A stretch of 14,336 nt of DNA from a virus: UHGV virus genome UHGV-0226239; one strand, written 5' to 3'. Numbering within the stretch: the stretch's first letter is position 1; every line of letters begins with the position of its first letter. The position numbers and the translations under genes were made by a program. Under the pieces are notes generated by a model. That model worked only from the letters and a program-made list of their open reading frames with translations. It made no database searches and had not been told where the DNA came from. This document shows positions 1 to 14,197 of this stretch, piece by piece.

Positions 1-195
1 AGGACTATTTTTTGGAGTCTTTGAAGCTCCAGCGCATTGATTTTTTTCTTAAGCTTGTAGCGGCTAGTGAGTGTAGTGATGAAGAGAAGGGGCTGGCTCT
101 GCAGTGGGTTTCTGAATTGACTGATGAACTCATGGCAAAAATCAGAAGCCACGAATACAACCGCTCAATGGATGTCATCAGCTGAGGTGACTTTT

Positions 196-429
196 ATGCG
201 CATTGAAATAATGATCGATAAAGAGCAGAAGATTAGCCAGTCTACCCTGGACGCCCTTGAATCCGAGCTTTACCGCAATCTGCGCCCCCTGTATCCCAAA
301 ACGGTAATTCGCATTCGCAAAGGTAGCTCTAACGGTGTGGAACTAACCGGACTGCAACTGGATGAAGAAAGAAAACAAGTGATGAAAATTATGCAGAAGG
401 TGTGGGAGGACGACAGCTGGCTGCATTAA
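196..429 (+). CDS. DinI-like protein (77 aa if started at internal ATG 196)
   Basis: Translation MRIEIMIDK...DALESEL...VWEDDSWLH resembles the DinI family (E. coli DinI begins MRIEVTIAK and ends with an acidic, Trp-containing tail). GAGGTGA RBS sits 5 nt upstream of ATG 196. The ORF-track start at 124 adds 24 residues with no RBS support. Confidence 0.65.
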   Translation: MRIEIMIDKEQKISQSTLDALESELYRNLRPLYPKTVIRIRKGSSNGVELTGLQLDEERKQVMKIMQKVWEDDSWLH

Positions 430-1527: not shown

Positions 1528-2673
1528 GTGGCAAATGATATCTTACATTTAGTTCTTGATTCGAATGTTCTTCATGAAGAAGGTTTAAATTCGAATGATA
1601 TGAAGTTATTGAAAAAATATACCGACAAAGGTTTGATTAGAATTCATTTACCTTCACTTGTGGCTAAGGAGTTTGTAACACGAAAATCAAATAATTTAAT
1701 TGATGGTCTGGAGAAATCAAAACAGTCTTTGGATTCTGTTGAGAGAGATGCTAGAGGAATAAGTGAAGAGTTATTGGAATGTTTTGATGAACTAAAGAAA
1801 AAAATCATCAATGCAAAAAATGACATTGGGAATAAACCACAGGAATGTTTTGACCGTTGGGTGCAGGACTTTAAAGTTTCTATTGTTGACACAATACCTG
1901 ACTCTGTAAATGAAGTTTTTAACGATTACTTTTTAGGTAAAGGTGTCTTCAGAAAACCAAAGGCTAGGGAAGATATACCTGATGCTTTTATTTGCGTAAC
2001 GATAATTAATTTGCTATCTGAGTTTGGCAGTATTGTTGTAGTAAATAAAGATAAAGCTTTTCGTAAACATTTGTCTGAGTATGATAAAATACAGGTGCTT
2101 CAGAGTCTGCGTGAAGTCTTTTCTTTAAAAGGTATAGATTTATTAGAAGATGAGTCAATGTTGGATTTAATCCATTCTGCTGAGTTTGTCTCTGCACTTA
2201 GCCAGTATCTACGACAGCGCCCAGATGCATTTGAGTATGTGTATTTACATGAGGATGAAATATCAAAAATAGCATTAATTGGTCAAAGGATATATGGCGC
2301 TAGTATAGAAGTAGAAAATTATAACGATATTGCTAATGCAAGTATTTCTGATGCTAGAAGTATTGATGAGCATACCTATTCGGCTTTGCTTAGTTTTGAT
2401 ATGAATGTAAATATAAATTATATAACTGATTATGGCACATTTCTCGATATAGAAAGAACACATGGTAGAAGACCAGAGATGGAAAGTATGAATGGTGACG
2501 GTATTTGTGATGTGTCTGAAAATGCTTTAACAAAGTTTTATGGTGATTTGACCGTCAAATTCAAAAAAAACAGAGAAGAGATTGACAAAAGTGATATTGT
2601 TAGATTTCTCCTTGATGAGGATATATGTGTTCAGTTTGAGATAAAAAACATTGAAATAATTGAAATGTTATAA
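1528..2673 (+). CDS. AT-rich cargo gene: 381-aa protein with N-terminal PIN-like nuclease motifs and a C-terminal domain of unknown function; candidate single-gene anti-phage/abortive-infection effector
   Basis: GTG start at 1528 preceded by AGGGAG with 8-nt spacing. About 30% GC against about 58% in flanking phage genes. Motifs D11 (ILHLVLDSNVL), E48 (PSLVAKEF), D152 (DIPDAFICVTI) and D175 (VVVNKDKAF) fit the four conserved acidic positions of PIN domains, with an insertion of about 55 aa between the second and third. Followed by a hairpin terminator. Confidence 0.8.
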   Translation: MANDILHLVLDSNVLHEEGLNSNDMKLLKKYTDKGLIRIHLPSLVAKEFVTRKSNNLIDGLEKSKQSLDSVERDARGISEELLECFDELKKKIINAKNDIGNKPQECFDRWVQDFKVSIVDTIPDSVNEVFNDYFLGKGVFRKPKAREDIPDAFICVTIINLLSEFGSIVVVNKDKAFRKHLSEYDKIQVLQSLREVFSLKGIDLLEDESMLDLIHSAEFVSALSQYLRQRPDAFEYVYLHEDEISKIALIGQRIYGASIEVENYNDIANASISDARSIDEHTYSALLSFDMNVNINYITDYGTFLDIERTHGRRPEMESMNGDGICDVSENALTKFYGDLTVKFKKNREEIDKSDIVRFLLDEDICVQFEIKNIEIIEML

Positions 2674-8975: not shown

Positions 8976-9191
8976 ATGACGCTTGAGCGAATCAGCGCCT
9001 TTATCACGTATTGCATCGCCGTCGTGCTGGCCTGGCTGGGCGATTTGTCCATCAAGGATGCCTCAACGCTGGGCGGCCTGATGATCGGTGTGCTGATGCT
9101 GGCTATCAACTGGTACTACAAACACAAAGCCTACCAGCTTCTGCGCGACGGGCAGATCACGCGGGAGGACTATGAATCCATCAATCGTTAA
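8976..9191 (+). CDS. Holin, class II / pinholin-like, 71 aa with two predicted TMDs
   Basis: Two hydrophobic segments (ISAFITYCIAVVLAWLG and LGGLMIGVLMLAINWYY) followed by a charged C-terminal tail; sits immediately upstream of and overlapping the endolysin gene, in the position of P2 Y. Confidence 0.7.
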   Translation: MTLERISAFITYCIAVVLAWLGDLSIKDASTLGGLMIGVLMLAINWYYKHKAYQLLRDGQITREDYESINR

Positions 9192-9684
9192 ACGCTGCCT
9201 TGTCGGGACCGTGCTGGCTATTGCTGCCACGCTGCCGGGTTTTCAGCAGCTTCACACCTCCGTGGAGGGGCTGAAACTGATTGCCGATTACGAAGGCTGT
9301 CGTCTGCAGCCGTATCAGTGCAGCGCGGGTGTCTGGACCGACGGCATTGGTAATACGTCGGGCGTCATTCCCGGCAAAACCATTACGGAGCGACAGGCAG
9401 CGGAAGGGCTGATCTCCAACGTGCTGCGTGTGGAGCGGGCGCTGGAAAGGTGTGTGAAGCAACAGCCGCCGCAGAAGGTGTATGACGCGGTGGTGTCGTT
9501 TGCCTTCAACGTGGGAACGGGCAATGCCTGCAGTTCCACGCTGGTGAAATTACTCAATCAGCGGCGCTGGGCGGATGCGTGCCGACAGTTGCCGCGCTGG
9601 GTTTATGTAAAAGGTGTGTTTAATCAGGGGCTGGATAACCGCCGTGCGCGGGAGATGGCCTGGTGTTTACAGGGAGCAAACTGA
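9172..9684 (+). CDS. Endolysin, GH24 T4-lysozyme-like, with an N-terminal SAR (signal-anchor-release) segment, 170 aa
   Basis: Weakly hydrophobic Gly/Ala-rich N-terminus (CLVGTVLAIAATLPGF); catalytic motif E-x8-C-x5-T in YEGCRLQPYQCSAGVWT; FAFNVGTGN block typical of phage lysozymes; GGGAGG RBS upstream. Confidence 0.85.
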   Translation: MNPSIVKRCLVGTVLAIAATLPGFQQLHTSVEGLKLIADYEGCRLQPYQCSAGVWTDGIGNTSGVIPGKTITERQAAEGLISNVLRVERALERCVKQQPPQKVYDAVVSFAFNVGTGNACSSTLVKLLNQRRWADACRQLPRWVYVKGVFNQGLDNRRAREMAWCLQGAN

Positions 9685-9685
9685 A

Positions 9686-10063
9686 ATGAAAAAGAAATTA
9701 ATCAGCGGACTGTTTCTGATGTTATGGATGGCGCTGTTAATCGCAGCAATGGTGTATCCGCAGGGGATTTTTCCGGTACTGGCAGCATCTGGTGTCTGGG
9801 TAGCCTGTCTGCTGACATGGGTGGTAATTCCGGTAGCACTGGCTGCGTTAATTAAGAATGGCTCGCTCTGGCAGGAGTTGAGGGCATCTTTGCTGAAGAC
9901 AATTACCCGAAAAGAAAACGTATTTATCAGCTGGGTGATGCGATTGCTGATTGTCGTAAGTCTCGCCTGGACGGGGTGGGCTATTACCCTGGTCTTTTAT
10001 CTGCTGACCGTTATTGCCTTCTGGATCACCCGTAATCAGATGGCGCAACAGGTAGCAGCATGA
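9686..10063 (+). CDS. lysA: LysA-like membrane protein (lysis timing), 125 aa from ATG 9686
   Basis: AGGGAG RBS 9 nt upstream of ATG 9686; about four predicted TMDs; position after the endolysin as in P2. The ORF-track start at 9614 overlaps the endolysin and is less likely. Confidence 0.7.
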   Translation: MKKKLISGLFLMLWMALLIAAMVYPQGIFPVLAASGVWVACLLTWVVIPVALAALIKNGSLWQELRASLLKTITRKENVFISWVMRLLIVVSLAWTGWAITLVFYLLTVIAFWITRNQMAQQVAA

Positions 10064-10488
10064 ACCGGTTGCTGCTGGTTGTGCTGGCGTTATTACTGGC
10101 GGCGCTGGGCTGGCAGACGTGGCGGCTGGCTGATGCCAGCCAGACCATCAGCACGCAGGCAGACGAGCTGCAGCGCCAAAGCCAGGCACTGGCAAAGAGC
10201 AACAGCCAGCTTATCAGCCTGTCCATTCTGACTGAAACCAATAACCGGGAGCAGGCGCGGCTCTATGCCGACGCAGAACAGACCAGCGCACTGCTGAGAC
10301 AACGACAACGCCGGATGGAGGAACTGAAACGTGAGAACGAGGATTTACGCCGCTGGGCTGATACTCCTTTGCCTGCTGACATTATCCGGCTGCGGGAACG
10401 TCCGGCACTCACCGGAGGTGCAGCTTACCGTCAGTGGTTGTCCGCGAGTGACGCCGTGTCGGCTGGATCAGGCAACGCCGCGCACTAA
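10060..10488 (+). CDS. lysB: LysB, Rz-like inner-membrane spanin (i-spanin), 142 aa
   Basis: N-terminal TMD (LLLVVLALLLAALGW) followed by a charged, Gln/Arg-rich helical periplasmic domain; ATG overlaps the lysA stop. Confidence 0.75.
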   Translation: MNRLLLVVLALLLAALGWQTWRLADASQTISTQADELQRQSQALAKSNSQLISLSILTETNNREQARLYADAEQTSALLRQRQRRMEELKRENEDLRRWADTPLPADIIRLRERPALTGGAAYRQWLSASDAVSAGSGNAAH

Positions 10489-10621
10489 TGGTGATCTGAA
10501 CGCGTTGCTGGATGAAACGGAGGCCGCCTGGGCGGTCTGTGCAGACAAAGTGGACATGATTATTGCGTGTCAGGAGCGAAACAGTGAACAAACCACAATC
10601 CCTGCGCCACGCCCTCAATAA
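10331..10621 (+). CDS. lysC: LysC, Rz1-like outer-membrane lipoprotein spanin (o-spanin), 96 aa, overlapping lysB in another frame
   Basis: GTG start at 10331; lipoprotein signal with lipobox LSGC; begins inside lysB in a different frame and extends past its stop, the overlapped spanin architecture seen in P2. Confidence 0.7.
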   Translation: MRTRIYAAGLILLCLLTLSGCGNVRHSPEVQLTVSGCPRVTPCRLDQATPRTNGDLNALLDETEAAWAVCADKVDMIIACQERNSEQTTIPAPRPQ

Positions 10622-11015
10622 AGCGGTGCCTTATGTCCGCAATAACCCGGACAAACTGCATCTGTTTGTGGATAACGGTTCGCTGGTTGCCACGGGGGCC
10701 AGCTCTATGTCGTGGGAGTACCGTTACACCCTGAACGCGGTGATTGAGGATTTCAGCGGCGACCAGAATCTGCTGATGGCCCCGGTTTTGCTGTGGCTGA
10801 GGGATAACCAGCCCGATGCCATCAATAACCCGGCGTTACGGAAAAAACTATTCACCTTTGAGGTGGATATTCTGCGCAACGATGTCTGTGATATCAGCCT
10901 GAACCTGCAACTGACAGAGCGTGTGCTGGTCAGCACTGACGGCAGTGTGTCAAGTGTTGAAGCGGTAGCGGAACCCGATGAACCAGAAGAAATGTGGACG
11001 GTGAAACGTGGCTGA
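10584..11015 (+). CDS. R: Tail completion protein, P2 gpR-like, about 143 aa from GTG 10584
   Basis: N-terminus VNKPQSLRHAL...LHLFVDNGS resembles the gpR N-terminus; AGGAGC lies 7 nt before GTG 10584. The ORF-track ATG at 10563 is an alternative start. Confidence 0.8.
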   Translation: MNKPQSLRHALNKAVPYVRNNPDKLHLFVDNGSLVATGASSMSWEYRYTLNAVIEDFSGDQNLLMAPVLLWLRDNQPDAINNPALRKKLFTFEVDILRNDVCDISLNLQLTERVLVSTDGSVSSVEAVAEPDEPEEMWTVKRG

Positions 11016-11454
11016 ATTACAGAAGGTGGACGACTGGCTGAGTGCTTTGCTGGCGAATCTGGAGCCAGCCGCAAGAAGCCGCATGATGCGCCAGCTGGCG
11101 CAGGAACTGCGCCGGACACAGCAGCAGAATATCAGGATGCAGCGCAACCCTGACGGCAGCAGCTATGAACCGCGACGGGTAACAGCACGCAGTAAAAAAG
11201 GCCGTATCAAACGTCAGATGTTTGCAAAGCTGCGCACCACAAAATACCTGAAAACTGCCGCCAGCGCGGATTCTGCCAGCGTACAGTTTGAAGGTAAGGT
11301 ACAGCGCATTGCCCGCGTTCACCATTACGGCCTGCGTGATCGCGTCAGTCGAAAAGGACCGGAAGTACGATACGCAGAGCGTCGTTTACTTGGAATGAAT
11401 GAATATGCAGAAAATATAGTAAAAGATATATTGTTTCAGTTGTTAATAAAATGA
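11008..11454 (+). CDS. S: Tail completion protein, P2 gpS-like, 148 aa; the last ~20 codons are AT-rich and probably chimeric
   Basis: GTG start overlapping the R stop; motifs LRRTQQQNIRMQRNPDGS and QRIARVHHYGLRDRVSRKGPEVRY resemble gpS; base composition changes abruptly near 11388. Confidence 0.85.
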   Translation: MAELQKVDDWLSALLANLEPAARSRMMRQLAQELRRTQQQNIRMQRNPDGSSYEPRRVTARSKKGRIKRQMFAKLRTTKYLKTAASADSASVQFEGKVQRIARVHHYGLRDRVSRKGPEVRYAERRLLGMNEYAENIVKDILFQLLIK

Positions 11455-11618
11455 TGTGACTAAACCACATCATTTATTGCTGACTGAAAACCACGTCTTT
11501 TGGGCGTGGTCATCAACTGGTTTTGGCTCTACATTATTGCCTTTGAATTTAAATGTTACAAAACTGGCAGTGGATTCTTTTTAAAGGTTTTGGTGCGCCC
11601 TTTTAGGATGTAATCAAT

Positions 11619-11645
11619 ACCGCCTTCTTAGAAGGCGGGTTTTTA
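11619..11645. terminator. Intrinsic terminator hairpin between convergent S (+) and the HNH gene (-)
   Basis: CCGCCTTC-TTA-GAAGGCGG stem-loop followed by GTTTTTACT on the plus strand; lies 3' of both convergent genes. Confidence 0.55.
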
Positions 11646-11648
11646 CTA

Positions 11649-12302
11649 CTAATCCATAAATGGTTCAAGAATTGGACCTAATTCAGCATCTTCCATAATG
11701 ATCCATCTGCAAAATGATGAAAAAGCTGCGTCTCTTTTTATCATCATCTTCATTTTTTCAATTAAGTATTTTTTTTGTTCTGTTGGAGTATCTTCTTCAT
11801 AATATTCATTAATATTTTTAATTAGTTTTTGGGTTGTTTTCACTACTTGAGTACGAAGTGCCGCAGAAGTTAATTTTTTACTCATGGTATGATCGCTATT
11901 ATATACTTTCTCAAGTAACTCTGCGGTCGTCTGCGTTTCAATATCATTAAATAGTGCTGTTACTGTTATTTTTTTTGCTTTATAAGAATATCCTGGGAGT
12001 AATTTTACTCGATCCCATACCTTTTCTTTACAGCAATCAAGAATGTTGTCATATTTTGATAGTTTTATATTGTTACATCTGGAACATGATAGATATAAAT
12101 TATCCCAATCAAAAGCTCTTTCCACATCATCACCCTTGGGTTTAAAATGTTCAATGTTTATATCCAAAGGGTTCTTTGTTTCGCAAATGTAACATTTTCC
12201 ATAAAAGCATTCCTGTAGTGCTTCATGTACATCAGCACCATCATAACGTGCTTTCTTGGAAAGAGACTTTGGTGCAGGATATGTTCTATTAACCTTGAAC
12301 AT
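11649..12302 (-). CDS. HNH endonuclease-domain protein, 217 aa (Septu PtuB-like)
   Basis: HNH/His-Me finger signature CYICE...IEHFKPKG...NLYLSCSRCNN (two CxxC pairs bracketing His and Asn); AGGAG RBS 5 nt upstream; the ATG overlaps the stop of the upstream ATPase gene (TAATG); about 30% GC. Confidence 0.8.
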   Translation of the reverse strand: MFKVNRTYPAPKSLSKKARYDGADVHEALQECFYGKCYICETKNPLDINIEHFKPKGDDVERAFDWDNLYLSCSRCNNIKLSKYDNILDCCKEKVWDRVKLLPGYSYKAKKITVTALFNDIETQTTAELLEKVYNSDHTMSKKLTSAALRTQVVKTTQKLIKNINEYYEEDTPTEQKKYLIEKMKMMIKRDAAFSSFCRWIIMEDAELGPILEPFMD

Positions 12303-13531
12303 TATTTCTCCTGAGAATTTGCTTTTTTATATTTTAGTATCTGCATTTTTGCATAGTCAATAAATGCACTTGCATGGATGTCCATGGATTCATCTAAAGG
12401 TGCTAAGGATTGTATTATGTTATTGGCAGTTTCAATATTGTTGTTGTTAATATTGTCAATAATATCTTGAAGTTGTTCTAACTTATCTGAAAGAACTTTA
12501 GATATTGGACTTACTCCGAATAATTCTTGAAGGATGATACCATAAGAATATGAAGACACATCACTAATTTTCGCGTTGGTCGATAGATCATAAATGATGG
12601 CATTTGTGACGGATGTAACAACAAACGGAGAATGTGTAGTGACAATGAATTGTACTTTAGGAAAGGAGTGACTAAAAAATCTTAATATTTGCTTTTGCAA
12701 AGAAACATGTAAATGCGCATCTATTTCATCAATAAAAATAATACCTTCGATACTGTCAGGTGTTAAACCCCACATTTCTACTCTCATTATTAAGTCAGCG
12801 TAAATTCTCAATATTGATGAGTGGCCAGAAGATAATGTTTGAAAAGTAAACTTATCTTTACCATCTTGATTGAGATAAAATTTTCCTTCGTTACTATCAA
12901 ACGTTAGTAAGAGGTTTTTATCTTCAAAAAGTTCCTGCATATCAGTTTCAATTTTATCAAACCATTTCTGTATCCGCTGAGCTTTCTTATGGTCATTATC
13001 AAAAGAAATTGCATAGCTCTGAGCTGTTTTTAAACTAACCAAATAATTCTCAAAGAAATCATCACCATCTACTTCATTAGAAAAATGTGATTTTTCATTA
13101 ATTAAAGCCGATAGCCTAGGAACGGCAATTGGCGAGGTAATTGATGCTTCACGTAGAGCTTTGTGAAATCTCAATAGTGAACGTGTTTCACCTTCTTTTT
13201 CTTTTGTTTCTATTCTAATGGCTTTTAATTGTTCAATTTTTAATTCAATGTTTTTTATTTCTTCAGAATAAAAGTTGTAATTAACGTCGTCACGCCCGCC
13301 GTTATTTAAGTGATATTTGTAGGACTCTAACGTATTGTATAAATTATTGATGTTATGATCATTAGGTCTATCTATCTTATTTTTAAGGAAATCATAAATA
13401 GATCTAATAAAACTAGTTTTTCCACACCCGTTACCACCAGTTATTATGAGATTTTTACCGTCAAGCAATAAGTTTGCTGTCTTATTAGTGTATGGAATTG
13501 GAGCATAAATTTCATTTATTGATGTAAGCAT
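12302..13531 (-). CDS. ABC-type / AAA_21-like ATPase, about 409 aa from ATG 13531 (Septu PtuA-like)
   Basis: Walker A (GGNGCGKTS), signature-like LSSGHSS, Walker B (IIFIDEIDAHLH) and H-loop (VTTHSP) motifs. The ORF-track start at 13630 would overlap gene V and its promoter; the internal ATG at 13531 with an AAGGGAA RBS is preferred. Confidence 0.8.
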   Translation of the reverse strand: MLTSINEIYAPIPYTNKTANLLLDGKNLIITGGNGCGKTSFIRSIYDFLKNKIDRPNDHNINNLYNTLESYKYHLNNGGRDDVNYNFYSEEIKNIELKIEQLKAIRIETKEKEGETRSLLRFHKALREASITSPIAVPRLSALINEKSHFSNEVDGDDFFENYLVSLKTAQSYAISFDNDHKKAQRIQKWFDKIETDMQELFEDKNLLLTFDSNEGKFYLNQDGKDKFTFQTLSSGHSSILRIYADLIMRVEMWGLTPDSIEGIIFIDEIDAHLHVSLQKQILRFFSHSFPKVQFIVTTHSPFVVTSVTNAIIYDLSTNAKISDVSSYSYGIILQELFGVSPISKVLSDKLEQLQDIIDNINNNNIETANNIIQSLAPLDESMDIHASAFIDYAKMQILKYKKANSQEK

Positions 13532-13618
13532 ATATTCCCTTGTGTCGTTAACAGTACAACTACAACACTGATAATAATACAACTTATTGAGATACAGTTC
13601 ACCTTTAAGGGGGGAAGG
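13532..13618. promoter_or_regulatory. Predicted V late promoter (P_V) with TGT-N12-ACA at 13541-13558, overlapping the divergent promoter/5' UTR of the ATPase-HNH operon
   Basis: TGTgtcgttaacagtACA read directly; its centre is about 55 bp upstream of a plausible start just before the V RBS (AAGGGGGGAAGG). A TATTAT -10-like hexamer on the minus strand (13574-13579) is a candidate promoter element for the divergent cargo operon. Confidence 0.4.
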
Positions 13619-14197
13619 GTGAACGCACAATTAACCGAAATCATGCGCCTTATCACCAACCTGATCCGCACTGGGGTAGTCACCGAAGTGGACAGGGAAA
13701 ACTGGCTTTGCCGAGTGAAAACGGGCGAGCTTGAAACTAACTGGATCAGTTGGCTGACGCTGCGTGCAGGAAATGCCCGGACATGGTGGCGACCATCGGA
13801 AGGTGAGCAGGTGGTGCTGCTGAGTCTGGGGGGCAATCTGGAAACGGCCTTTGCGCTGCCCGCTGTCTATTCGAATCAGTTTGCGCCACCGTCGACGTCG
13901 GCGGACGCCTGTGTGACAGAATATCCTGACGGTGGCTGGTTTGAATACGAACCTGCCACCGGGCGCTGGTATGTCAGGGGCATCAAATCCATGGTCATTG
14001 AGGCTGCCGATAACATCACCCTGAAAACCAGTGAGTTTGTGCTGGAGGCTGAGTGCACGCGTATTAACAGCGAAGTGGTGGTCAATGGTGGCGTTACTCA
14101 GGGCGGCGGAGCGATGAGTTCTAACGGGATCGTGGTTGATGCGCATCAGCATACTGGCGTCCTGAAAGGCGGCGATACAACCGGAGGCCCGGTATGA
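13619..14197 (+). CDS. V: Baseplate assembly/spike protein, P2 gpV-like, 192 aa
   Basis: GTG start with a strong RBS; motifs LTLRAGNARTWW.PSEGEQVVLL...GGN.ETAF.LP and a C-terminal SNG...H.HTG block resemble gpV. Confidence 0.85.
   Translation: MNAQLTEIMRLITNLIRTGVVTEVDRENWLCRVKTGELETNWISWLTLRAGNARTWWRPSEGEQVVLLSLGGNLETAFALPAVYSNQFAPPSTSADACVTEYPDGGWFEYEPATGRWYVRGIKSMVIEAADNITLKTSEFVLEAECTRINSEVVVNGGVTQGGGAMSSNGIVVDAHQHTGVLKGGDTTGGPV

Follow-up and report, generated by a model that had tools for sequence, protein, structure and literature searches.

Gene Order and the S-V Slot

A stretch of 14,336 nucleotides (nt) from the virus genome UHGV-0226239, referred to below as the window, carries the late genes of a P2-like prophage in which gene S, encoding a tail completion/virion morphogenesis protein, is followed by an AT-rich cargo and by gene V. 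A preliminary description of this DNA had placed a break in base composition within the 3' end of S and had attributed it to a C terminus derived from the cargo insert. The results given here locate a break in ancestry inside S, demonstrate that the S 3' end is co-inherited with the cargo and with the promoter region of V, and point to a divergent copy of the S terminal helix as the origin of the AT-rich end. The open reading frame (ORF) map gave the gene order Q and P (minus strand), then O, N, M, L, X, holin, lysin, lysB/C, R, S, and V. The late region is collinear with Peduoviridae records that carry the matching annotations, at a DNA identity of 86-95 %, which places the window among the P2-like prophages of the Fels-2/Elveevirus type. 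Gene R lies at 10563-11015 and gene S at 11008-11454 (148 residues, stop codon TGA at 11452-11454), and gene V begins at 13619 with the start codon GTG, all on the plus strand. The S-V interval (11455-13618) has a GC content of ~0.31 against ~0.57 in its flanks. In cargo-free relatives such as Klebsiella phage 4LV2017 the gap between S and V amounts to only 68 base pairs (bp). The interval is the classical orf30 "moron" slot of P2-like phages, here occupied by Septu; GC-deviant genes between S and V, terminator-like hairpins, and a dyad at -78 from V were all found in it. This slot is one of the three known moron regions of P2-like phages (PMC6823313, PMC3091744).

Two genes make up the cargo, both on the minus strand. 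ptuB (11649-12302) encodes an HNH nuclease of 217 residues that matched the PADLOC model PDLC00321 (PtuB) over its full length (5e-100) and the Pfam HNH domain (1.2e-5). ptuA (12302-13531) encodes an ABC/AAA_21-type ATPase of 409 residues, counted from its ATG, that matched PADLOC PDLC00268 (PtuA, 1.5e-138) and the Pfam domains AAA_21 (6e-19) and AAA_15 (6e-12). Residues 2-404 of PtuA aligned with positions 2-409 of the 411 in the PADLOC profile, the translation contains the Walker A motif GGNGCGKTS, and the ptuA stop overlaps the ptuB start by 1 nt at 12302. By these sequence criteria, the cargo is a complete type I Septu system (PtuA plus PtuB). Type I Septu pairs the ATPase PtuA with the HNH nuclease PtuB (Doron et al. 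2018, as cited in PMC9122126). The window shares the usual two-gene, same-strand arrangement of this system, with full-length model matches, and nothing unusual was detected.

In E. coli the Septu cassette occurred in the S-V slot only, and none was found outside the P2 context in the plasmid collection, searched for near matches, or in the phage collection, searched for distant ones. Three other Septu cassette lineages (L082/L083, L021, and L028) occupy the same slot, with 71-78 % DNA identity to the cassette of the window. The annotation of E. coli M7424 and its three sister genomes splits ptuB into two ORFs because of a frameshift (L078, 4348-5000), and cassette, tail, and hairpin are otherwise intact; Septu has probably been inactivated in this sub-lineage, as judged from the reading frame.

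A Break in Ancestry inside Gene S

The S body, codons 1 to ~125 (11008-11384, plus strand), matched Pfam Phage_tail_S (1.3e-40) and is linked to the phage backbone. The S 3' end, codons ~126-148 and the stop (11385-11454, plus strand), encodes RLLG and then the terminal helix MNEYAENIVKDILFQLLIK, and is linked to the cassette. Up to 11384 the S body DNA was 94-97 % identical to that of cargo-free relatives and of relatives with other cargos; beyond this position ~50 % of the positions differed. A fall in GC content near 11388, as the preliminary description had reported, was recovered by several measures. The GC content in 200-nt windows dropped from 0.52-0.58 (11001-11400) to 0.35-0.29 (11401-11900). 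The 57 nt past the LLG codons had a GC content of 0.19 and a third-position GC content (GC3) of 0.21, compared with 0.57 and 0.60 for the remainder of S. Megablast alignments to 36 related phage records all ended at 11381-11387. A maximum chi-square analysis against two cargo-free loci (L087, L002) and two with other cargos (L001, L088) set the break before 11383-11388, with 4-6 % mismatches to the left and 43-54 % to the right, and the observed value was reached by 0 of 500 permutations. When 63 native alleles were combined into a consensus, the window S resembled this backbone up to and including base 11384. The AT-rich last residues of S had been given earlier as LGMNEYAENIVKDILFQLLIK, and this reading is correct, as is the position of the stop codon.

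Variability changes at the same place. In an alignment chosen for distinct tails, column entropy was 0.32 bits for residues 1-129 and 2.26 bits for residues 130-148. The co-inherited block may start slightly farther upstream, as early as ~11353-11361, as indicated by synonymous variants specific to Septu loci (11361-11370): the 12-mer CCGGAAGTACGA, located at codons 118-121, was common to all Septu-type loci and absent from 80 of 80 other loci, with single variants of it occurring elsewhere.

The Tail as an S C Terminus

A three-way alignment of the window S with those of cargo-free 4LV2017 and of 813R9, which carries a different cargo, showed residues 1-125 to be identical save at one position. 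Past RRLLG each protein continues with a phage-specific tail, and all three tails are 19 residues long (MNEYAENIVKDILFQLLIK in the window, VNDDVEAMTRDIILQWLAG in 4LV2017, and IHDKEYYQIKDTLFEWLST in 813R9). The window tail shares only 4-7 of its 19 residues with the tails of close relatives. Protein-level matches extend to residues 146-148 even in these close relatives, and the Pfam Phage_tail_S alignment reaches residue 145. The least variable tail positions include Asn131, Asp140, Leu142, and Leu146, and nearly all cargo-linked S alleles encode proteins of 147-149 residues. The invariant R-L-L-G lies within the recoded block in the form of synonymous variants (CGT TTA CTT GGA instead of CGC CTT CTG GGT). 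The imported piece thus starts within a stretch whose protein sequence is conserved, which is what a diverged allele of the same gene should show.

The likeness of the tail to S was evaluated with a profile built from 36 cargo-free S proteins, with 500 shuffled tails and 500 tails of random AT-rich ORFs as controls. The full window S scored 229.6 bits and the tailless protein 214.4 bits, so that the tail adds ~15 bits. The controls gained ~+3 +/- 2 bits: shuffled tails averaged 217.8 (maximum 225.1) and random AT-rich ORF tails 217.4 (maximum 225.9), and the real score was attained by 0 of 500 in either set. AlphaFold, run on a 50-sequence alignment, predicted residues 132-147 as a discrete terminal helix with a predicted local distance difference test score (pLDDT) of 86-91, within a global S model that was poor (pLDDT 64, predicted template modeling score 0.28). 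The break accordingly sits at a structural boundary. A PDB sequence search with S found no match to solved structures.

Taken together, the sequence comparisons show that the tail is S-derived, a divergent, AT-rich copy of the S terminal helix; the different tails would be functionally equivalent. The earlier proposal that the last ~20 residues came with the insert is upheld insofar as the last ~19-23 codons are of different ancestry from the body and share the history of the insert; it is not upheld insofar as the end would be chimeric and insert-derived. The tail aligns with S of insert-free phages, contrary to that proposal, and its AT-richness is not shared by them, in agreement with it: GC3 of the tail is 0.53-0.79 in cargo-free Fels-2-like enterobacterial loci.

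Linkage of Tail and Cargo

Among 5426 complete E. coli genomes, ~1000 share the S and V flanks and 13 carry the Septu cassette in the S-V slot. A sensitive search detected the tail plus the repeat that follows it (11388-11471) in exactly those 13 genomes and not once among the ~990 others that have the flanks. An independent sample consisted of 80 IMG/VR viral contigs with S bodies at least 89 % identical. Native-type tails were found in 66 of the 80, all with the empty 68-bp slot; 58 loci share an identical native tail, and the 66 native-type tails differ at no more than one residue. The 14 cargo-bearing loci represent 10 cargo types and 10 AT-rich tails (GC content 0.24-0.38) in one-to-one correspondence. 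Not one of the 3160 pairs of loci was discordant, be it with the same tail and different cargo or with different tails and the same cargo, a count inflated by near-identical prophages, the independent information being that of ~10 cargo types. A 30-nt stretch of the tail DNA had no match in the viral contig scan, and the single IMG/VR copy carries the exchange N136T.

A second cassette family, defined by the tail I[GA]EKEQ...WLQEKGGLHK and a 503-residue cargo gene, was present in Klebsiella, Salmonella, and a metagenomic contig. Loci L090 and L092 are 89, 87, and 90 % identical in R, the S body, and V, respectively, and 95 % in the tail, 95 % in the spacer, 98 % in the cargo, and 98 % in the region before V. 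The tails being more alike than the S bodies, the tail follows the cassette and not its own gene. The best 120 S cluster representatives contained 82 distinct tails, and more than 12 unrelated tails stood on bodies at least 95 % identical to that of the window.

The composition shift was also examined across species in 72 distinct S proteins, taken from 75 species-representative loci and 7 others. For the 36 cargo loci the median difference in GC3 between tail and body was -0.19, and for the 36 empty ones it was -0.02 (Mann-Whitney p = 3.5e-5, with no correction for phylogeny). In ten other cargo-linked alleles the breaks fell at codons 125-137, and 6 of the 11 breaks, including that of the window, lay at codons 125-126. 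A reverse cargo ORF of another type overlaps the S 3' end by 12 nt in E. coli STEC005 (L088, 4142-4153), so that the S tail in some cassettes is also constrained by the C terminus of a cargo gene.

The Right Edge and the Presumed V Promoter

The right edge of the cassette, placed by alignments, is formed by a G-rich ribosome-binding stretch and the V start GTG (13609-13621, plus strand). Backbone homology resumes at codon 2 of V, and the start codon is GTG in the window and ATG in relatives. Among Septu prophages the 87 nt upstream of V were 99-100 % identical, as compared with 93-94 % for V itself. A TGT-N12-ACA dyad (TGTGTCGTTAACAGTACA, 13541-13558, plus strand) lies in this region. From the P2 annotation and from established knowledge of P2 late promoters, we take it to be the Ogr-type activator site of the late promoter of V (P_V). 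In the interval from -85 to -55 relative to V, such a dyad occurred in 51 of 76 loci and in 0.6 % of shuffles. It was present 64-78 nt upstream of V in the empty slot and with each cargo type, amid otherwise unrelated DNA and in a version particular to each cargo type. The four Septu lineages all place it at -77/-78; in the empty slot and with most other cargos it stands at -64/-65, 13-14 nt nearer to V. A G-rich Shine-Dalgarno leader is likewise added in all four Septu lineages, and in the E. coli lineage V starts with GTG. The shared dyad position and the leader indicate that the promoter region is cassette-specific. The co-inheritance of tail, cargo, and promoter region is a direct observation; from the conserved dyad we infer that the late promoter of the downstream tail operon is supplied by each cassette itself.

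P_V would be activated by Ogr and would transcribe V-W-J-I-H-G, and P2 late promoters are defined by their activator dyad. For the latter reason, a sigma-70-like match at 13548-13575 was rejected as P_V. The annotated pV activator site of P2 is centered 55.5 nt before the annotated V start, the same geometry as in the -64 class. Applied to the window, the P2 geometry would put the transcription start near 13605, with the -10-like hexamer TACAGT at 13594-13599. In the -64 class, the distance from the dyad to the ATG equals that from the P2 dyad to the annotated transcription start, which would imply a nearly leaderless V message in this class.

The Inverted Repeat over the S Stop and the Element behind It

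An inverted repeat that includes the S stop codon had been described earlier as a 7-bp repeat with a 7-nt spacer. It proved to be longer: a perfect 10-bp repeat with a 7-nt loop (11449-11475, plus strand), made up of AAATGATGTG (11449-11458) and CACATCATTT (11466-11475). The corresponding RNA hairpin has a folding energy of -10.9 kcal/mol. It is the only perfect hairpin repeat of at least 10 bp in the window; one of this kind arose in 19 % of composition-matched shuffles of the whole window and in 0.2 % of those confined to the 80 nt around the stop.

Two other Septu lineages, L082 and L021, have a hairpin at the same position; it abuts or overlaps the S stop, and a T-rich stretch comes after it (AACGATGCG-N7-CGCATCGTT-GATTTATT in L082 and AACGATGTGGC-N3-GCCACATCGTT in L021). 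The folded stretches that contain these orthologous hairpins reached -15.8 and -23.1 kcal/mol, respectively. In an alignment of four sequences, a small sample, 95 % of the cells were paired, compared with 22-58 % when the partner was slid. Three of the ten pairs had changed on both sides (C-G to T-A), and the covariation score was 0.43 versus 0.22 in shuffles, of which 4 of 500 reached the observed value. Three changes without compensation disrupt the stem in E. coli prophages of the L079 type and leave it with an energy of -1.3 kcal/mol. The window stem has only 3 G-C pairs in its 10 bp; the 7-bp core alone would leave the tail TTTATTGC (5 T of 8), and a consensus terminator scan did not report the repeat. 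The P2 record NC_001895 has an O-operon terminator annotated at the corresponding place.

On this comparative evidence, the repeat is an AT-shifted orthologue of a conserved hairpin of the Septu cassette family. It is most simply read as a putative terminator between the convergent O operon and ptuB, one that would be largely redundant. The preliminary description had offered a small terminator or a recombination scar. The terminator is the better of the two; the scar disagrees with the position of the repeat 65 nt inside the block, with other cargos that do without it, and with its uncompensated loss in L079. The repeat was seen neither at both ends of the cargo nor at the junctions of other cargo variants, in which the sequence after the S stop was unrelated.

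Between the hairpin and ptuB lies a dispersed element of ~170 bp (11473-11645, plus strand) with a hairpin at 11490-11510 and an intrinsic terminator, whose stem (11620-11638) is followed by a T-run. It occupies this place in the E. coli Septu lineage only; the other Septu cassettes have just 30-47 bp there. The energy of its hairpin is -15.1 kcal/mol, and the terminator scan recognized its terminator as canonical. Some 20 other E. coli genomes have copies at 68-82 % identity, which sit where accessory regions begin or end, in intergenic DNA that is unannotated. One copy lies between the genes for a MurR regulator and a porin, a second between yoaC and an operon for fimbriae, and a third in the other P2 hotspot, with gene A on one side and a SIR2 gene on the other. 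The element was absent from the phage and plasmid collections searched, and an Rfam search of 11200-11900 gave no match at E <= 1. Its fold had a z-score of -4.9 relative to shuffles. The consensus fold of 6 copies contained 2 doubly changed pairs, and its covariation term of +0.12 kcal/mol provided no net covariation support. The element is a candidate for a module resembling a miniature inverted-repeat transposable element, for a small RNA, or for a portable terminator. A plausible reason why the old hairpin is weakened here and lost in the sister lineage is its redundancy, since the element, with its stronger hairpins, was inserted right behind it.

Proposed Exchange of the Cassette and Alternative Explanations

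We consider it likely that the S terminal helix, the terminator hairpin, the cargo, the P_V dyad, and the V start codon form one unit that is swapped by recombination between P2-like phages. Such a unit would be wider than the cargo genes, extending from about codon 126 of S to the V start codon, and it would supply the flanking operons with a replacement S helix, an O-operon terminator, its own P_V, a ribosome-binding site, and the V start, with the cargo in reverse orientation between them. The exchange would most probably proceed by homologous recombination between co-resident P2-like phages, with one crossover in the highly conserved S body and the other right at the start of V. The terminal S helix would be constrained in length and amphipathic pattern only, and since the tail would need nothing further, the alleles of different cassettes could have diverged. 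The cassette-linked tails would have drifted to a cargo-like AT-richness until they were unable to support recombination, and crossovers would then pile up just upstream, at the invariant coding patch for ...YAERRLLG, leaving the sharp step at 11384/11385. The repeat over the S stop would be the ancestral terminator hairpin of the cassette, with the ~170-bp element inserted behind it later, in the E. coli lineage. Both homologous recombination as the mechanism and this cause of the AT-richness are read from the pattern of sequences.

Several observations weigh against this scheme, in addition to the limited independence of the IMG/VR pairs and the poor global model of S. The recombination event was not seen directly. 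No S gene rich in AT turned up as a possible donor, and among the representative genomes of other species none had a match to the peptide MNEYAENI. The four Septu lineages are about equally diverged in their cassettes (71-78 % identity) and S bodies (75-83 %), so part of their history may be vertical co-divergence; their tails form no obvious family. The contrast among the closest Septu prophages is modest, with 95-96 % identity for the S body, 93-94 % for V, and 96-99 % for the cassette. The position of the junction is not uniform either. A cargo family of ~790 bp retains the native tail up to the last 2-4 codons, and in P2 the tail is GC-normal and the orf30 region begins after the stop; the junction is hence a zone with a strong mode and not a fixed site.

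The alternatives were weighed against the same data. If no tail had been exchanged, the tail could have evolved rapidly in place, drifting toward AT beside the cargo under mutational bias or relaxed selection, and the linkage would merely reflect markers of lineage. The equal divergence of Septu lineages and their S bodies would suit this view, as would the resemblance of the L082 and L028 tails (VNRKIEDMTKNILLS and VNDELVKITTDILLRSLM) to an AT-shifted native tail (VNDEVETITRDTLLRWLAG). We nonetheless regard it as improbable: S bodies that are 94-99 % identical carry tails that differ by ~50 %, the transition is step-like and not graded, native tails are near-invariant among close relatives (58 of 80 identical, 66 native-type), and the 95 % identity of the L090 and L092 tails, set against 87 % for the S bodies, is the opposite of what drift in place predicts. 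An illegitimate insertion of AT-rich foreign DNA that overwrote the S 3' end would have produced a true in-frame chimera. The sharp break of composition and homology inside the gene, the mere 4-7 of 19 tail residues shared with close relatives, and cargo-linked tails that are very degenerate or changed in length (L025, L026, and L011) would all be natural outcomes of such an event. It has very little probability in our estimation, because the tail scores as an S C terminus at a level that neither set of 500 controls reached, the length of 147-149 residues is kept, RLLG is synonymously recoded in the block, the helix is confidently predicted, and the P_V dyad stands at the correct distance from V, which would be unexpected of random foreign DNA.

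The repeat might itself mark the edge of the cassette, as a recombinase site or the footprint of an insertion. A perfect 10-bp repeat is rare in local shuffles (0.2 %), and this one abuts the left end of the ~170-bp element at ~11473. The break at 11384 lies ~65 nt upstream, however, so that the repeat falls within the swapped block; cassettes with other cargos have unrelated sequence there, L079 has lost the stem and yet holds the cassette, and no recombinase is encoded near the repeat in the window. The L082 and L021 orthologues are G+C-richer and then T-rich, the form of an intrinsic terminator, at the place of the annotated P2 terminator. A recombination site is, in light of this, scarcely credible. 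The turnover of tails might also be adaptive, with the S helix sensed by defense systems or satellites and each cassette provided with a matched "escape" tail. The 82 tails among 120 representatives on an invariant body, their one-to-one relation to cargo, and a helical pattern kept despite the turnover of sequence would agree with this. The cargos are mechanistically unrelated, though, and linkage together with AT drift already explains the pattern; some cargos keep a native tail and the empty slot always has one, as hitchhiking predicts, and adaptation of this kind appears most implausible. A related idea makes the S helix a functional part of each cassette, for example an escape variant against its own or rival P2-encoded systems, or, in a weaker form, makes the YAERRLLG patch a dedicated recombination anchor; we judge it very improbable. 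If it were true, the slot would exchange matched pairs of a defense system and an immune structural allele.

Other Features of the Window

A second AT-rich island (1400-2750, GC content ~0.30) adjoins the portal gene Q at the position of the classical old/tin hotspot. It contains an ORF (1528-2673, plus strand) for a protein of 381 residues with an N-terminal PIN_12 domain (Pfam 9e-21) and with no PADLOC match, a candidate for an uncharacterized defense gene. Upstream of the island, 124-429 (plus strand) encodes a DinI-like protein (Pfam 1.2e-22); this gene probably lies at or past the end of the prophage. The lysis block (9001-10562) was only ~70 % identical to that of the Septu-carrying prophages L078-L080, which are 96-97 % identical elsewhere. 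It is a separate mosaic module, and a lysA-type gene is variably present or absent among relatives.

Relation to Known Systems

The slot, Septu, and the rapid swapping at P2 hotspots are already known. P2-like phages that are nearly identical in other respects exchange diverse defense systems at a few fixed hotspots faster than their core genes diverge (PMC9122126, 2022; PMC13586616, Nucleic Acids Research 2026). A hotspot "within the tail genes" has been described, and elements of this sort have been found to carry Septu, among other systems (PMC9122126, PMC13586616). The recombination processes behind the swapping remain to be elucidated (PMC13586616). As defined in these studies, hotspots are intervals between core genes, whereas the boundaries in the window were placed at nucleotide level inside S and at the V start codon, and a terminator and a late promoter form part of the swapped unit. 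Breakpoints inside S, a hypervariable S C terminus, or a late promoter or terminator traveling with the cargo were not mentioned in the literature searched.

The orf30 region of P2 (NC_001895; see also PMC6823313, PMC3091744) has the same layout as the window: S, a putative O-operon terminator, the non-essential, AT-rich, reverse orf30, the pV activator-binding site, and V. At the orf30 position the window carries the two-gene Septu system and P2 carries orf30. The variable region of P2 begins past the S stop, and the S tail is GC-normal; in the Fels-2-like clade of the window it begins inside S, at codons 125-137, and the last S helix belongs to the cassette. In the 80alpha tail-completion protein gp51, terminal helices pack with tape-measure helices in a superhelix (PMC11661146, PMC11099176). 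The predicted S resembles gp51 in having a long helix at the N terminus and one of ~16 residues at the C terminus, with poor order in between. This likeness to the lambda gpZ/SPP1 gp16.1/80alpha gp51 type is one of layout in a low-confidence model, with no sequence match. As a lead only, packing of the gp51 kind would need an amphipathic pattern more than a specific sequence.

The boundaries of the exchanged unit are the signature expected of homologous exchange between related phages and not of the insertion of a mobile element. Hotspots defined as lying "between core genes" leave out ~70 nt of what varies. With its 19 residues, the S tail can be used as a short barcode of cargo type, and clustering of S at 90 % identity splits one protein into dozens of clusters in a manner unrelated to S function. 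That a tail-completion protein tolerates replacement of its terminal helix is a testable statement on tail assembly. The definition and the likely mechanism of a known hotspot are sharpened by these results; the understanding of Septu and of P2 is unchanged, and their importance is moderate.

In the mosaicism model of Hendrix and Hatfull, sharp transitions in relatedness are said to fall at the boundaries of protein structural units and to be kept because only functional recombinants survive. The S break resembles such mosaic joints in that it coincides with the start of the terminal helix. Unlike a one-off joint, the S junction was found in at least 11 independent cargo types, each time at almost the same codons, and the exchanged segment of the protein is completely linked to non-homologous cargo. 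In this respect, the S tail and its cargo behave more like an allele-tagged cassette system than like a one-off mosaic joint.

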